A DNA stretch of 64,000 nucleotides from Octopus vulgaris (lineage: Eukaryota): assembly GCA_951406725.2 (NCBI GenBank), contig OX597814.1, positions 196,230,001 to 196,294,000 on the forward strand, read 5' to 3'. Numbering within the stretch: position 1 is the stretch's first letter; every line of letters starts with the position of its first letter. A program made the position numbers and the translations under genes. Under the pieces are notes generated by a model. It worked only from the letters and a program-made list of their open reading frames with translations. It was not told the origin of the DNA and ran no database searches. This document shows, one piece after another, positions 1,823 to 53,617 of this stretch.

Positions 1823-2712
1823 TAGATTTGAATTTTATGTATATCTATCTATATATCCATCTGTCTATCCGTCTATCCATCTACTTATCTATCTATATAT
1901 TATTCTGTCTGTCTGTCTATATACATATGCATATAAATCTGAATGACATATGTAGGTTGGTGAGAATTTCTGTACGCATGCGTGTACATGACAGACAAAT
2001 ATCTCCTTTGATTTTTGATCACTACTTTAAAGATGCAAAATGAAATTGGCGTGTGAGAGAAAGTCTTGTCGTGAGGCACAAACCGAAGCCTTTTATGATG
2101 CGAAATAATCACCAAAGATGCCGTTTGAAGACTTTCTCTGCATCTTACAAAGGCGGCGTCACTCGTCTCGTTTTTTCCATCTGCCCCGAGCTTGAAATAA
2201 TGAATGTAATATATTTAAATAGAGCTTATGCTCTATCGCTAAAGATACAAGAATACATGTCCTCTTTATGAGTATATAAACTTATACATACATGCAGATG
2301 TGTACATACCTATATGTGTGTCAGTCTATGCATGGCTGCGAGCGCAGCGAAGATTTTTTAGACTTGGAAATAAAAGAAATATCGAAACACAATAATACGT
2401 GAAAATGCATACATGTGTATATATGCATGGACGTGATATATGCATGTATGTGTACATACATACTACATATATACATACATTAATACATGCATACTTATAT
2501 ATGTGTATGTGTGTGTATTGTGTGCGCGTGTGTGTGTATAAATGCAAAAAAAAAACGTACATACATTGACACACGCATATAAATAGATAGAAATATGTGG
2601 GGATATATATGTAGGGAATTAGTAATAATGGTACATCCCTCTCACGTGACGAATGGAATAACCTAGTCACCATAAGTAAAGAGAGGTACGTAATAGGCGG
2701 TCAAAGATAGCT

Positions 2713-3378
2713 AAAATAAAGGAAAGAAAATTAAAGGAAACGGTGTATGGTATTAAGTAACCTACCCGAAGAACATTGAAACAGAGAAGAAAATACTCAA
2801 GTTCAACCAAATAGTAAGAGTAAAGATACCAGCATACATATATGCAGAGGATATGAAGGCGATAGTAATTGGAGAAGAAAGTTATAAAATACTACAAGAA
2901 ATGTGTGGAGATAATATCGACCCATCAGGAATAAGGGTGGAATTCAAAGAATTGCCACCAGTAGTGGATTTAGTAGAAATCGAACCACTAATGAAATGTT
3001 ACTAAAAAATAAATAAGTATGTCAAATCGACAGGAAAAAAGAAAAGAAAAAGAAAAAGGAGGAAAAAAAAAAGAAAAGTGTTTTATGTTATATTTAATAA
3101 TATCAGAAAATAGAAGAACATTTTTAGAGAAAAATATAACGGATCAAATAATTGTAATGGTAGACGATAATTATTTGTTAGTTAAATATATGATAAAAAT
3201 GGACAGTTTAAAAAGATTAATGGTAATGCATGTGATGAGGGGCGCATGCAGCCATTCATAACCCCATTATTGTATAATGATTTCATCATATTCGTTTTAT
3301 GTAGTGTCCCCTCTGTGGTGTCCTGTCTGTCCTTGTTTGTCCCCCTCTATGTTTGGGCCCTTGTGGCTAATAAAGAAA
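2713..3378 (+). mobile_element. Non-LTR retroelement fragment 'A' with short ORF remnant and Tx1-like 3' end
   Basis: Flanked by caaagatagct (2702-2712) and cagagatagct (3379-3389); ORF remnant ~2772-3005 ending ...GDNIDPSGIRVEFKELPPVVDLVEIEPLMKCY*; ends gtggctaataaagaaa. Confidence 0.7.
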
Positions 3379-3393
3379 CAGAGATAGCTGTGT

Positions 3394-4191
3394 CTAGACA
3401 AAATTGACCCACTCGGAGTGTTGGTGAAGTTCGACGAACTGCCACTCGTAGATGAACTCAAAGACGTGGATCCTTACATGAGGTATTAAAATGAAAAAAA
3501 AAGAGTAAGTAAAATTGTTTCGAACAAAAAAAAGAGAGGAAAAAAATGATGATTAAGAAAAAACAATACACAAAAATAGAACGATTGTAATATAGTGTGT
3601 ATAAACGTTCAAATGGTACTGCATAGGAGTCGGGCCCATGCAGCCATTTCATTTTTTCCATTTTTATATAACATTCATTCGCATTCGTTTTATGTTTTAT
3701 GGGATCTTTTCGGTTTGACCGGCAGTTTTTAACATAATTTCTAGGTAGCTGAAAAATTTTAAACTTCGTATACAGATAGAATGTGTTTATAAAACATCTT
3801 TTTCTCTTGGCTTTATTGAGAAAATTCTATAGTTTGTAAGATATTTGGTCTTTAATTTCTTGCATTTCGGCAATTTCAACCAATCAATGACCGTCTATTG
3901 AGGTGAAAACATTATGTGCCGTATGAATATGTCTCTCGTTTAAGAAACAGATTGGGTTTATTTACATTTGTGAAGAAAAAAGATACCCTTCCCCCTAACC
4001 CTAACCCTAAAATAGATTGAAATGCAATAGATCGATACTAGCGTCATAATTATGGGTGACAATTTCATATGACACCGATAGAAAAACTGCCGTTCAAACC
4101 GAAAAATTCCGTTTTATGTCTCCACTGTGATGTTGTGTCTGTCCTTGTAGTGTCCTCCTCTGTGTTAGGCCGGGGTGCCAAATAAAGAAAT
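3394..4191 (+). mobile_element. Non-LTR retroelement fragment 'B' (homologous to A), interrupted by a MITE
   Basis: 15-bp TSD cagagatagctgtgt (3379-3393 and 4192-4206); ORF remnant LDKIDPLGVLVKFDELPLVDELKDVDPYMRY*; ends gtgccaaataaagaaa. Confidence 0.7.
3702..4110. mobile_element. MITE, Merlin-like (GG...CC termini, 8-bp TSD)
   Basis: ~28-bp TIRs ggatcttttcggtttga.cggcagttttt; TSD gttttatg at 3694-3701 and 4111-4118; second copy at 12290-12713. Confidence 0.85.
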
Positions 4192-4299
4192 CAGAGATAG
4201 CTGTGTGTTTACTGGTTTTACTGAGTAGACTGTATACCGAAGTGGGCGTTATAACAATCCAACATATAGTTAGGTGAGTCAAAGGTTCGAATGCGTCTG

Positions 4300-5140
4300 A
4301 GGGAATGTAACAAAAAAGTTGCTGTGAAACAGAGTGGGACTCCTGTATGTAAGCCAAAACGAAATGAAAAGTTGCCCACGGTAAAAGTTAAACATTGTTC
4401 AAAAATAGATATTCCGTGGTCGAGTATACACATCGATTTCGCTGGTCCTTTCAGAAATTTGTTAAGTCGAAACAACCAACCACCTCAACTGTGATAAATT
4501 TTTTACACGAATTGTTTGCAAGATTTGACATCTCAAACATGGTAGTGCTTGACAATGGAACGCAATTTGTGTCTAGCGAATTTAAAATGTTTTGTGAAAT
4601 GTGCGCGAGAGAACCTATAACTACTGTGCCATATCATCTCAGATTTAACAGAAAACAGAACGTTTTGATATCTCCAAAAGAGCCCTTAGAAAATCAAATA
4701 AGGAAGTCACGGATGAGGTACCTCTACAACAATTTTTCAGAGTGTACCGTGTGGTACCAAATCCGAATATACCAGAAGGTAGTTCACCTTGATTAATTGC
4801 TAGCTGGCAAGAAAAGAAAAAAATGTTAGGGAAATATAGTAAGATTTTTTAAAGTCGGTGAAAAGGTGTACATGAGGGCATACAAGAATGGAAAGCAGAG
4901 TTGGGAAGATGGCGTAATTACCAAGTGCATAAGGAAAATGTTGTACTAGGTATAAAGTAGAAATGGCGTATATAAGAGACACACGAAGCAACTGAAAAAG
5001 AAATTTGTGGAAAGCAAAGAGGTGGAATGGTTGTACGATACGATCCAAGTACCAACGCTACAACAGGTGATTGAACCCAGGCGGGGAAAAGAAAACATAC
5101 AGAGTTCGTGAAAATAGATGCCAAGCGCAAACCATATTAA
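4300..5140 (+). pseudogene. Gypsy integrase (rve) remnant, frameshifted
   Basis: PWSSIHIDFAGPF, LHELFARFD..VVLDNGTQFVSSEF..FC, TTVPYH and FKVGEKVY spread over several frames. Confidence 0.9.
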
Positions 5141-5216
5141 ATTATATGTAAAAAAAAAAAACTCAAAAAAGTGAGGTGGGTTGAATGAGAAATAATTATT
5201 ACCTAAATAAAATGAC

Positions 5217-5497
5217 GTGGGGGTGCATTGCCTAGCGGTTAGAGCAGCGGGCTCGTGGTCGAGGGATCGCGGGTTGGAATCTCAGACCGGGAGATGTGTC
5301 TGTTTATGAGCGAAACACCTTAGCTTCACGCGGCGAAGGTAATGGCGAACTTCTGCTGACTCTTTCGCCACAACTTTCTCTCACTCTTTCCTCCTGCATC
5401 TTACAGCTCACCTGCGACGGACCAGCGTCTTGTCCAGGTGGGGAACCTTTGCGCCAAGGAGCCCTATGAACCAGGCGTGGCTCGAGAAGGAACAAAC
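5217..5497 (+). mobile_element. tRNA-derived SINE, family C (L2-like tail)
   Basis: tRNA-like head; TSD aaataaaatgac (5205-5216 and 5498-5509); copies at 29393 and 37880. Confidence 0.88.
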
Positions 5498-5791
5498 AAA
5501 TAAAATGACACCGCCTAAGAAAAAACTTTAAAGAAGAGACGTAGGGAATTAATAATAAGTGTACACTCATCTCACGTGACGAATGGGCTAACTTAGTCAT
5601 TGTAAGTAAGGAGAAGTACGTGAAGTACTAGAGTACGTTGTAGGTGTTCAGAGATAGTTGTGTCTTTATTGGTTTTACTAAGTACATTGTATACTGAAGT
5701 GGACGTTATCACAGTCCAGCATTTTAAGGATATAACAATATACAATAATGTTGGTGGCACCAACCAACAACACACATGCACACCTACTCAC

Positions 5792-6137
5792 AGCGGTGAG
5801 CTGACAGAATTGTTAGCACGCCGGGAGAAATGCTTAGCGGTATTTCGTCTGCCGCTACGTTCTGACTTCAAATTCCGCTGAGGTCGACTTTGCATTTCAT
5901 CCTTTCGGGGTCGATAAATTAAGTATCAGTTACACACTGGGGTCGATGTAATCGACTTAATCCGTTTGTCTGTCCTTGTTTGTCCCCTCTGTGTTTAGCT
6001 CCTTGTGGGCAGTAAAGAAATAGGTATTCCGTCTGCCGTTACGTTCTGAGTTCAAATTCCGACGAGGTCGTCTTTGTCTTTCATCCTTTCGGGGTCGATA
6101 ATTTAAGTACCATTTACGCACTGGGGTCGATATAATG
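5792..6137 (+). mobile_element. SINE family D (Meta-domain-like), head-to-tail dimer
   Basis: tRNA-like head; core gcctttcatcctttcggggtcgataaattaagtaccag; tail ...gtgggcagtaaagaaata followed by a second unit starting ggtattccgtctg. Confidence 0.88.
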
Positions 6138-11920: not shown

Positions 11921-12038
11921 GCTTACGGCCATATCACGTTGAAAGCACCGGTTCTCGTCCGATCACCGAAGTTAAGCAACGTCATGCCTAGTTAGTACTT
12001 AGATGGGAGACCGCTTGGGAAACCGAGGTGCAGTAATC
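11921..12038 (+). rRNA. 5S rRNA-derived sequence, probably a retroposed pseudogene or 5S-SINE
   Basis: 118-nt match to the metazoan 5S pattern (gcttacggccatatcacgttgaaagcaccggttctcgtccgatcaccgaagttaagc...gttagtacttagatgggagaccgc); no oligo-T terminator; 14-bp TSD. Confidence 0.92.
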
Positions 12039-12095
12039 GTCACATATTGTAAAGAAATATATATATATTAGTAAAGAAATATATAATTTACATTT

Positions 12096-12254
12096 TGTCG
12101 TGTGGATGCCCCCAGACAATGAAGTAGGCTAGCCCAATGCATAGACATAGAGGGAGAAGTCTAGACGCCGTCGAGCAAGCTGAGTAGTAGTAGAGAAAGT
12201 AGACTAGAGCATAGTAGAGTTGAGTGGTGGAGGCATCCGACGTACTACATAACA
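12096..12254. mobile_element. Solo LTR (159 bp)
   Basis: TG...CA termini; 5-bp TSD cattt (12091-12095 and 12255-12259); subterminal inverted ggatgcc/ggcatcc. Confidence 0.65.
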
Positions 12255-12289
12255 CATTTATATACCAATAATCATGGTATGCTCTTTTA

Positions 12290-12713
12290 GGATCTTTTCG
12301 GTTTGAACGGCAGTTTTTTTTAGCAGTGTCATATGAAATTGTCACCCATAATTATGATCCTAGTATCGATCTATTGCATTTCAATCTGTTTTAGAGTTAG
12401 GATTAGGGTTAGGGGTGGGGGAAGAGTATCTTTTTTTCTTCACAAATGTAAATAAACCCAATCTGTTTCTTAAACGAGGGACACATTCATACGGCACAGA
12501 ATATTTTTTTAGCTCAACAGACGTCACTGATTGGTTGAAATTGCAGAAATTGAAGAAAAACAAACAACAAATATCTTACAAACCATAGAATTTTCTCAAT
12601 AAAGCCAAGAGAAAAAGATGTTTTATAAACACATTCTACCAGTATACGAAGTTTAAAATTTTTTAGTTACCTAGAAATTATGTTAAAAACTGCCGTTCAA
12701 ACCGAAAAGATCC
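12290..12713. mobile_element. MITE, Merlin-like (opposite orientation to the 3702 copy)
   Basis: Perfect TIRs ggatcttttcggtttgaacggcagttttt; 8-bp TSD ctctttta (12282-12289 and 12714-12721). Confidence 0.9.
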
Positions 12714-12952
12714 CTCTTTTATGTTAGCAAATGTTAAAAGAAACAGTCTGGTAAAGCAAAGAAAGAGGTAGCTTAGAGCCTATATGGCTGCTGTCTGAGT
12801 GTAACAATGAAAATATACGAGCTCGCTATGAAGCAATTATCCTCGTTCTTATATAAATTGCATTTACAAACCAACTCTCTCTTACTGAGATAAATAATAA
12901 ATAAACAAAAATGTATAGACATGCGTAAATGCATACGCACATATGCACATGT

Positions 12953-50653: not shown

Positions 50654-52537
50654 GCCCATCACTCTGCTTAATGGAGACTTGAAAATTTTGGCCAAGGTGC
50701 TAGCCAAGAGGTTGGCGCTTGTCATCGAGAATCTGGTCGACAGGGCGCAAACATGCGCCGTGCCGGGCCAGACCATCCATGACAACCTCCACCTGATGCG
50801 CTACATCATAGACAGGGTAGTTAACGAACCTGGCATGGGTGGGGCGCTGATCAATTTGGATCAATCGAAAGCTTTCGATAGGGTAGACCATCGATACTTG
50901 GAGGCGGTCCTCAGAGCGGCAGGCTTCGGTCCCGTCTTCCGCGGCTGGATAGCCGCTTTGTACAGAGGCATCCGTTCGGTAATTCGCGTGAATGGACATC
51001 TATCGAGACCCTTCGACATCGCACGTTCGGTCCGTCAGGGATGCCCCCTCTCGTCGCTTCTATACGTATTGACTCTCGAGCCATTATTGCGGAAGCTGGC
51101 AACTTTGAGGGGCATCCCGCGAGAACTGGGATGCGGGACGAGCGTGTCTGCATACGCGGACGACGTCACCGTCATAGTGTCTAGCCACGAGCACATCGAG
51201 CAGGTCGGCGAGACACTGAAAAACTACGAAGCGGTGACAGGAGCGAAAATCAACCGGGAAAAGTCAGTGGGCTTGCGACTAGGCACCTGGAGAAGCAAGC
51301 CCATGCCGTCCACCAGCGCCTCCGTCGTGGGACGCTGGACCGACGGCCCGGTTGAGTTGCTCGGGGTCTGGTTTGGTTCGGACCTCCAAGTGGAGAAGAA
51401 CTGGAACGAGATAACGAGTAGGGTGGTTACTCTCGCCCGGCAATGGGCCGAGAGGAAACTGTCCCTAAAAGGTCGGGCGGAGGTGGCGAACACGTACATC
51501 GCGTCCGTCATCTACTACCGCCTGACCGTCGTACCTTGTCCCGACCCTACCATCACCAAACTACAACGCATTCTCTTTCGCTTCTTGTGGAAAGGATGCG
51601 TCCCGATGGTCAGGCGATCCATTTGCTGTCAACACCCGCTAAAAGGAGGGCTGGGCATGCCGTGGTTGATGATGCGCAGACACGCGCTGAGACTGCGACA
51701 TCTCTGGCTCTATGTAGACGACGGTGAACAGGTGTGGTCGCCGTTTGTGAGGTACGCTTTCCCGCAGCTCGTCTCCATGACCGAACTGCAGTCGTGGATC
51801 AAAAAGAGGCCGAGGAAGGGCGATTGGCACCGCGAGTGTCGCGTTGCGCTCAAGCAACTCTGCCGTCCCGGGTCGACCTTGAGTGACTTCAACACAACCA
51901 AAGCATTCTATAGGGGATTAGTGGAGGGGAGGTACGACGACGAGCTCGGGGCGAACCTGGACGTCGACGAGGAGTACCTGACCCGCCTGTTCAGGACGAC
52001 TTTCGGGCCAGGGCCCATGGACAACTTCCAGAGATCCCTGGCCTGGCAGTGCTACCGAGAAGCGCTACCCGTTCGGGATAAGCTCTACAGACACGGCTCG
52101 AGAAACACGGGGCCGACCTGCCCGAGATGCGGTCAGAGCGACGAAACCGTTCTGCACGCACCCGTGCAGTGTCCAACAATTTCCGACCTGTGGGCTTATG
52201 TCGAACAACTGCTGTCACGTGTGGGACGAGTCGGTTTATCAGCTGAGTCTATCGTCAATATTGTCACGCCTCCTTCCTTCAAACGGGAAGGAAGAGCTAT
52301 TTTCATCATCCTTGTGGCTATGGCGAAAGAATGTATCTGGTGGACGCGTCTGAAGGGATTGGAGACAAACAATTTCCTCTCTGGTCAATCTCTCATCAAC
52401 TTCTTCAAGTACCACTTGAAAAGGAAAGTGAAAGTAGAGAGGCAAGTTTTGTCTAGCGAATGTTTTAAAAAAGATGGATGAATGTAGCAAGGATGGCACG
52501 TATGAATGACGAAGCCACCTTGAGCATAATCCTATGA
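50654..52537 (+). CDS. L1/Tx1-clade ORF2, 5'-truncated: reverse transcriptase plus C-terminal CCHC zinc finger
   Basis: PITLLNGDLKILAKVLA.RL, LDQSKAFDRVDH, VRQGCPLS.LLY, AYADD, KGGLG, CPRC...ETVLH...C; open to 52481, and a single-A frameshift gives the likely native end (KRWMN...LSIIL*) at 52537. The listed ORF's N-terminus is only (TATC)n. Confidence 0.95.
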
Positions 52538-53003
52538 ACCCAGAAATTGAAAACAGAGGGTTACCCACTTGCAAACAAATGTGGTAACATATAACAATAT
52601 TGACCAAGGTTACCGTGGTCTTTTTCGTAGGCTTTTCTTCCCACGGATAAACCTTACTTGCTTTCCCCTTTACACTATATATCATAACACTGTGATACAC
52701 GATCCCTATTGATCGTCCTTTTTTTTCCTCTTCCCCTTTTTTCCCCCTTTTTTCTTCTTTTTTCATTTCTCTTTCCTTTTGTTCCTTTTCCTTTTCTTTT
52801 TTTTCTTTTTATTCTATTTATTTTATTCAATTTTTTTTTGTTTTTGTTCTTTTCTTCCCTTTTACGATCCCTCTTGATCGAAAACCTACGCCACCCCCTT
52901 TTTTTTTTCTTTTGTTTTTTGTTCTCTTCATCCCCCAAAAGAAAAGCTCTACCTTGTAACTTGTCCCATCTGTGTGCAGCCCTGTGTGGCCAATAAAGAA
53001 ACT
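50654..53003 (+). mobile_element. Tx1-like LINE inserted in (TATC)n
   Basis: GC-rich ORF, T-rich 3' UTR, ends gtggccaataaagaaact; (TATC)n at 50563-50653 and 53004-53090. Confidence 0.9.
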
Positions 53004-53010
53004 TATCTAT

Positions 53011-53092
<82 letters not shown>

Positions 53093-53286
53093 CCCTCCCT
53101 CCCTACTGACCTACCTACCTATCTACCTACCTACATATCTACCTACATACCTATCTACCAACCTATCTATCTATCTATCTATCTCCCTGTCTCCCTCTCT
53201 CCCTACCGACCTACCTACCTATCTACCTACCTACCGACCTATCTACCTACCTACCTATCTATCTACCTACCTATCTACCTACCTAC

Positions 53287-53356
<70 letters not shown>

Positions 53357-53617
53357 GTCTCCCATTTTTCTTCTTTTTTCATTTCTCTTTTCTTTTGTTC
53401 CTTTTCTTTTTCTTCTTTTTTTATTTATTTTATTTTTTATTTTTTTTATTCTATTATTTTTGTTCTTCTTTTTCCCTTTTACGATCCCTTTAGATCGAAA
53501 ACCTACGCCACCACTTTTTTTTGTTTCCTTTTTTTTTTTTTTTCATCCTCCAAAAGAAAAGCTCTGCCTTGTAACTTGTCCCATCTGTGTGCAGCCCTGT
53601 GTGGCCAATAAAGAAAC

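Follow-up and report, generated by a model that had tools for sequence, protein, structure and literature searches.

Probable ORF1-only, HAL1-like LINEs stacked in a Gypsy-type LTR of Octopus vulgaris, with a possible positional preference past the TATA-like box

The half-L1 (HAL1) of mammals was reportedly described by Bao and Jurka in 2010. HAL1 is a non-autonomous LINE derivative that carries ORF1 alone and has long kept its coding capacity, and the supply of ORF2p in trans has been inferred for it (PMC5753468, PMC3627910). Tx1 elements are associated with target preference: PMC4494074 describes, in the part compared here, a preference of the crocodilian families Tx1-8_Crp and Tx1-4_AMi for specific LTR retrotransposons and the occurrence of Xenopus Tx1 in Tx1D. 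The same part covers crocodilian Tx1-Mar/SINEU and non-autonomous partners that share the target, with transcription from flanking host sequence proposed for SINEU, and treats a Tx1 family as target-specific when one sequence type makes up >20% of its flanks (Kojima 2015; PMC4494074). A third system, TRE5-A of Dictyostelium, is a non-LTR element whose ORF1p binds TBP, Brf1, and Bdp1 (TFIIIB), and TRE5 elements insert strictly 44-54 bp upstream of Pol III genes in antisense orientation, according to the sections of PMC5911963 used here.

In the window, that is, the whole stretch of 64,000 nucleotides of O. vulgaris DNA analysed, two elements designated A and B lie one behind the other in the 5' LTR of a deleted Gypsy-type element [Table 1]. 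As the preliminary description of this DNA had it, the site motif occurs three times in the 5' LTR, at 2702 (CAAAGATAGCT, one mismatch, 11 bp) and at 3379 and 4192 (CAGAGATAGCTGTGT, exact, 15 bp), and once in the 3' LTR, at 5649. Its observation that A and B are diverged and yet encode homologous C-termini also holds, as the two are 74% identical over 312 columns with many gaps and share CATGCAGCCATT (at 3245 and 3637) and a tail ending AATAAAGAAA. When aligned with the 3' LTR, positions 2611-2710 and 4191-4265 are 83% and 85% identical, respectively, so that the two LTRs are as alike as random W copies (85%). The ORF remnant of A is interrupted by an in-frame stop at 2754-2756. The nearest fetched copy of A is 93.7% identical, the nearest fetched copies of B are 84-87% identical, and B carries a MITE; B thus looks older than A, which fits an order in which new copies stack ahead of old ones. 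A second copy of the MITE (89%) lies at 12295-12714. Elsewhere in the window, SINE copies at 5967, 33978, 45343, 45748, and 60374 have a tail core 81-88% like the A/B tail, and an empty solo LTR of a second family, X, at about 12095-12255 adjoins the second MITE copy with its 8-bp duplication. Just upstream of this solo LTR, about 11950-12030 resembles a 5S rRNA fragment. A 5'-truncated copy of a very young LINE family, with its 3' end duplicated, lies in (CTAT)n repeats at 50654-53616; this family numbers no fewer than 150 copies that are 97-99% identical in protein, and in many of them an ORF2 of 1149 aa is still open.

Table 1. Features of the stacked locus, in positions of the window.
Feature	Position	Strand	Remarks
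Gypsy-type remnant, LTR family W	2610-5737	+	ATATA flanks at 2605-2609 and 5738-5742
Left (U3) part of 5' LTR, deleted Gypsy-type element, family W	2610..2701	+	TATA-like box CATAAGT at 2671; short form, 17 bp missing
Left target-site duplication (TSD) of A, CAAAGATAGCT	2702..2712	+	begins 31 nt past TATA-like box
Element A, very probably a 5'-truncated ORF1-only LINE, A lineage	2713..3378	+	ORF remnant up to stop 3003-3005; 3' UTR; tail 3324-3378
Shared duplication CAGAGATAGCTGTGT, right TSD of A and left TSD of B	3379..3393	+	
Element B, very probably a 5'-truncated ORF1-only LINE, B lineage	3394..4191	+	last 31 codons to stop 3487-3489; 3' UTR; tail 4136-4191
MITE inside 3' UTR of B	3702..4110	.	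terminal inverted repeats; 8-bp duplication GTTTTATG; 409 bp
Right TSD of B	4192..4206	+	perfect 15-bp duplication
Right part of 5' LTR	4207..4265	+	last ~15 nt missing; PBS, gag, RT gone
Gypsy-type internal remnant	4266..5539	+	polypurine tract; integrase broken (rve at 4392-4676, E 7e-7)
Empty 3' LTR, long form	5540..5737	+	TATA-like box 5601; usual site GAGTAC +30, CAGAG +48

A and B are very probably dead, 5'-truncated representatives of two lineages of non-autonomous LINEs of HAL1 type that carry only ORF1 and measure ~1.9 kb. A genome search with the A peptide, which had been proposed earlier, gave 151 scored matches of 1264 candidates in the 2.8-Gb genome (a second search, 150 of 14403), and longer copies extend the peptide to a natural full ORF of 417 aa. 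What had been described as short-ORF elements are therefore really the truncated ends of ~1.9-kb elements with an ORF1 of 400 aa-plus; full-length copies bounded by TSDs measure 1.8-1.9 kb, and the spacing from stop to tail is mostly 280-400 nt. ORF1 comprises two predicted RRMs, a CCHC knuckle (zf-CCHC, E 0.0016), a charged linker, and a C-terminal domain of 90 aa, which is the part seen in the window. Modelling of the full ORF, also proposed earlier, was informative for the N-terminal part, whose confident model matches tandem RRM proteins (best E 4e-5), but for the C-terminal domain the model is weak (pLDDT 66) and gave only generic ferredoxin-like matches (best Z 6.3). With this domain, Foldseek returned no match at E 0.001 or better and Atlas no usable match, and Pfam returned nothing for the A peptide. 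The domain is common to A, B, and a third ORF1-only family, and it was not found in the ORF1 of autonomous Tx1-type elements at the 24 loci scanned.

The N-terminal 200 aa (about 195 aa aligned) are 31-38% identical to the ORF1 that precedes full APE-RT-zinc-finger ORF2s in the same genome, and no endonuclease or RT was found before the tail in A/B copies, which bears out the proposal that the family lacks RT and has its relatives among the L1/Tx1-type LINEs of this genome. Within loci L001-L230, a query with ORF2 matched only neighbouring elements, L122 being ambiguous (an ORF2 fragment abuts a truncated B). The ORF1 read upstream in longer copies rules out that the peptide is a restriction-like endonuclease or an ORF2 end. 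The dN/dS ratio, in bins set by synonymous distance and with saturated pairs excluded, is 0.5-0.6 for closely similar copies and falls to 0.14-0.23 for divergent ones, with both ORF1 domains alike; judged by these ratios, ORF1 is under purifying selection. The anatomy of ORF1, its homology to autonomous ORF1, the lack of ORF2, and this selection together indicate HAL1-like half-LINEs. Homologs outside this genome were found only in proteins of Octopus bimaculoides, of both A and B type.

The hallmarks of target-primed reverse transcription are present, namely variable 5' truncation, TSDs, and, for A, a tail in common with its candidate partner T2. A TSD score of at least 11 was obtained for 44 of 128 copies, whereas shuffled pairings reached it in 3 of 128 cases, and the duplications of 11-22 bp have a median of 17 bp (58 copies). 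More distant ORF1-only families (29-41% identity) occur in stacks at L265, L269, L342, and L343; the C-terminal domain is present in one of these families and seems to be missing from some. A tandem array with a period of 144-146 bp that holds the A/T2 tail was seen at G000:C21:42754223-42757328 (11 matches).

Candidates for the autonomous partner were sought through the tails. The last ~40 nt of A are the tail of the autonomous family T2, whose junction is fixed at GGATG; none of 44 T2 flanks lies in X or W, for which reason T2 was rejected as the sole cause of LTR targeting. About 9 of 30 T2 copies (L271, L311-L340) occupy one site of another repeat. For B, no ORF2 was attached in the 70 examined of 114 tail-pattern matches. 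A second autonomous family, T3, has 1 of 37 flanks in X or W, this copy lying at the W site with a 17-bp TSD. T3 (L261, L446-L457, L465-L485) is ~5.1 kb long, its tail resembles the abundant SINE of the window, and some copies have a TATA-containing 5' leader; internally deleted derivatives, in which the ORF2 start or ORF1 is fused to the ORF2 end, recur (L285, L286, L287, L293). The LINE at 50654 was discarded as a partner because it has a different tail and lies in (CTAT)n. The ORF2 of locus L263 contains Exo_endo_phos, RVT_1, and zf-RVT, and those of T2 and T3 are about 50-60% identical to it. The Tx1 label of A, B, and these candidate partners is a provisional one that follows domain layout and the preliminary description, and the 120 matches listed include no named Tx1 reference. 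With no ORF2 found on the B tails examined and no X or W in the T2 flanks, the engine that moved A and B is one that we infer.

We then took a census of landing sites in 180 distinct copies gathered by protein similarity or exact tail pattern and not by flank, many short copies being assigned by the tail alone; this set leaves out 11 rows (SINE tails, distant families), 6 rows (T2-like or unassigned), and copies without a detectable tail. The 3' flanks cluster in LTR X (19 copies), a non-LTR repeat (17), LTR W (10), four more LTR-like families (4, 4, 3, and 2; 13 in total), another repeat (3), and six other pairs, and 106 are singletons. About 50 of the 180 copies, including 8 manual additions, lie in small LTRs of Gypsy type that belong to six or more families, and ~70% of copies lie outside recognisable LTRs. 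The additional LTR-like families open with TGT at 75-120 nt upstream; in several, the terminal ACA is followed by a PBS-like or gag-like stretch. The LTR start motif was found 70-120 nt upstream in 11 of 58 TSD-defined sites, compared with 1-3 in other intervals; PBS-like TGGCGACGAG follows 9 of 19 X and 3 of 10 W insertions, and matches to DUF7083, RVP, and rve beside X and W LTRs indicate a Gypsy-type host. Insertions in LTRs are nearly all in sense orientation (19 sense and 1 antisense in X). In the X LTRs (L171-L200), the purine-rich stretch past the TATA-like box varies greatly in length and sequence, and repeated PBS-like units follow many of them.

As shares of the 180 flanks, X accounts for 10.6%, W for 5.6%, and pooled LTRs for 23-28%; within clades, X accounts for 18 of 70 copies of the A-tail clade and W for 6 of 6 copies of one B subclade. 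Exact marker matches in the genome number 275 for X and 67 for W, and since an exact marker was present in 9 of the 21 X cases and 2 of the 9 W cases already known, corrected copy numbers are roughly 640 (X) and 300 (W). A 50-nt sense interval in 640 X copies would cover ~6e-6 of oriented positions, against 0.106 observed, and control flanks (319 kb) contain one W LTR and no X LTR. LTR enrichment is thus >1000-fold for the two families counted (X, W), even if the copy numbers were ten times too low. Seen from the LTR side, such an insert occupies 1 of 30 X copies and 3 of 30 W matches, two of the latter being B and one T3; one locus, through duplicates, accounts for three of the 30 W matches. 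The preliminary description had spoken of a parasite of an LTR retrotransposon, and the LTR preference is real, but other LTR families and the non-LTR repeat are used as often or more. It had also named random flanks of other copies as evidence against its view, and 106 of the 180 flanks are the singletons given above. CAGAGATAGCTGTGT as the target of the family has to be given up, since the tail followed by CAGAGATAGYYGTG occurs twice in the genome, both times in the window, and the other 9 of 10 W copies sit 7-18 nt further upstream. The 17 copies in the non-LTR repeat are B copies (L131, L139, L145, L376, L401, L407, and others) sharing one site near the end of this uncommon repeat, which has 1 match in 596 kb of control loci; an inverted repeat of Helitron/Helentron type was found upstream of this target in 0 of 15 cases.

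We prefer the reading that landing is directed by position, near TATA+31 of the LTRs, and that A and B were inserted by a borrowed Tx1-type endonuclease/RT 31 nt past the TATA-like box, the predicted transcription start of a small Gypsy-type LTR; we put its probability at roughly 0.55. All six ORF1-only W insertions that retain the 5' half have their junction 31-33 nt past the TATA-like box, and one T3 copy has it at 31. Of the 15 W LTRs measured, 12 are long-form, with GAGTAC at TATA+30 and CAGAG at +48, and most other W insertions are at GAGTAC, 18 nt upstream of the window site. In the short-form 5' LTR of the window, CAGAG lies at +31, and both A and B are there although a GAGTAC-like motif persists at about +13. 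At this one locus, the 17-bp deletion (relative to the 3' LTR) shifted the site 18 nt along the sequence and yet preserved the TATA distance. In X, distances from TATA to junction are spread over 18-41 nt, and TSDs are weak.

A statistical comparison used the 58 TSD-defined sites, with 4 doubtful calls excluded and an interval of -38..-26. A motif chosen post hoc, after X and W had been seen, occurs in 12 of 58 (p 6e-7), TATAWA in 6 of 58 (p 8e-4), and the neutral motif TATAWAWR with 1 mismatch in 10 of 58 (p 0.025). By lineage, TATAWAWR is found in 7 of 28 B sites (p 0.009) and in 3 of 30 A sites, the latter not significant, and at non-LTR sites there is no signal (4 of 38, p 0.78). For T3, with this interval fixed beforehand, TATAWAWR (1 mismatch) occurs in 9 of 18 sites, mostly non-LTR (p 0.0009), and the T2 control gave 2 of 14 (p 1). 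A fixed promoter distance is seen in W, as a bias in T3, and loosely in X, and for A/B copies it is not seen outside LTRs.

A purely sequence-directed choice, in which a Tx1-type endonuclease with a short purine-rich preference acts together with pairing of target-derived RNA ends, and the TATA distance is a by-product of TCAG/GAG motifs shared by the LTRs, is a serious but less probable alternative. Targets do cluster by lineage on the 3'-UTR tree (49 changes, against 66.8 when shuffled). The B subclade found entirely in W (starred on the tree) has near-identical junctions, and of two further copies found by its tail, one is in W and one at the head of a W-like element; likewise, a single group, itself with weak support, takes in 16 of the 17 copies located in the non-LTR repeat. 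The fixed site of these 17 requires sequence recognition there. A junctions begin with G in 19 of 30 cases, the T2 junction is fixed as described above, and the endonuclease mainly sets the target according to Kojima 2015 in the part of PMC4494074 compared here. The 5' ends of full-length copies resemble the post-TATA region of their hosts, even in copies outside that host, which speaks for sequence guidance and is also what transcription of source copies from the host promoter would lead one to expect. However, the minor LTR families are spread over unrelated lineages (U 5 changes in 5 rows, V 4 in 4, Y 4 in 4), and both the T3 bias at mostly non-LTR sites and the shifted site in the short-form LTR of the window speak against sequence guidance alone.

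That ORF1p aims the element, its extra C-terminal domain tethering the RNP to the Pol II pre-initiation complex by analogy with the TFIIIB contacts of TRE5-A ORF1p (PMC5911963, in the sections used here), appears improbable. Such a role would suit a domain that is conserved (dN/dS about 0.2), present in A, B, and a third ORF1-only family, and not found in the autonomous ORF1 regions scanned, and it would suit A, which has the tail of T2 but not its targets. Nevertheless, T3 shows the strongest TATA bias without the domain, the bias is weakest in the A lineage, which does possess the domain, and the fold model offers no more than the generic matches given above.

The insertions are independent of one another: upstream of the tail, at distances of 457-2441 nt, the corresponding U3 half is present in 11 of the 15 X cases and 5 of the 7 W cases that were checked, so that truncation points differ, and occupied W halves are not specially related (84.8% to each other, 84.7% to empty halves). 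It is accordingly very unlikely, and largely refuted, that A and B belong permanently to an LTR subfamily and are propagated together with the Gypsy element (a possibility already raised in the preliminary description), or that the LTR flanks are 3' transductions or chance, since in spite of the near-identical junctions of the W-only subclade, 29 of 30 sampled X LTRs and the 3' LTR of the window are empty.

Under position-directed landing, ORF1p would package its RNA in cis and ORF2p would be supplied in trans, in line with what has been proposed for HAL1, the borrowed machinery most likely being of T3 type for B and of T2 type for A. Nicking would favour open promoter DNA near the start site, and pairing between the nicked strand and a few bases of read-through sequence, carried at the 3' end of the RNA, may fine-tune the site. 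Through this pairing step, a lineage born in one host would tend to return to it, newcomers would stack ahead of older copies, and the LTR promoter of the host could then drive transcription of the inserted copy. If this is true, non-LTR target choice here involves more than the sequence specificity of an endonuclease, and a parasite can put a rival LTR element out of action and at the same time take over its promoter. The reason why non-autonomous LINEs keep ORF1 for so long also becomes testable, both lineages having homologs in a second Octopus species. The small conserved C-terminal domain, for which the searches run found no relative, may be an object of interest in itself.

Compared with HAL1 as presented in PMC5753468 and PMC3627910, the octopus elements are likewise ORF1-only with a long-maintained ORF1; they differ in that this ORF1 is RRM-RRM-CCHC and related to the Tx1-like LINEs of the genome and not to mammalian L1, in a tail ending AATAAAGAAA without poly(A), in the extra C-terminal domain, and in their target preference, none being reported for HAL1 in the portions of those two papers compared here. 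With Tx1-clade elements they share a preference for other transposons, including LTR retrotransposons, whereas the crocodilian and Xenopus Tx1 of PMC4494074 are autonomous with SINEs as partners, and the octopus elements are protein-coding and ORF1-only. The octopus elements also enter LTRs of at least six families, apparently at a set distance from a TATA-like box, a difference that concerns the text of PMC4494074. TRE5-A and yeast Ty3 insert at a set position relative to a promoter (PMC5911963, in the sections used here), and the octopus elements may do likewise; unlike these, they do so in sense orientation at presumed Pol II LTR promoters, with a partial preference and by a mechanism proposed from sequence. 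A bolder extension, which we regard as doubtful, is that an octopus LINE clade has machinery able to recognise core promoters of Pol II and to nick the DNA where transcription starts, and that old, promoterless ORF1-only parasites with a new C-terminal domain exploit it to colonise and hijack many unrelated LTR promoters; an animal non-LTR element would then offer a Pol II counterpart of tRNA-gene targeting by TRE5 and Ty3. Outside Repbase Reports and subscription journals, we found no account of ORF1-only Tx1 derivatives in octopus or of LINE insertion at TATA+30. In essence, two known behaviours, ORF1-only LINEs as in HAL1 and the preference of Tx1 elements for transposons as in the LTR-preferring crocodilian families, are joined here with a proposed positional rule of ~31 nt past a TATA-like box, facing forward; the parts are known, and the searches turned up no description of their combination with TATA-relative landing.
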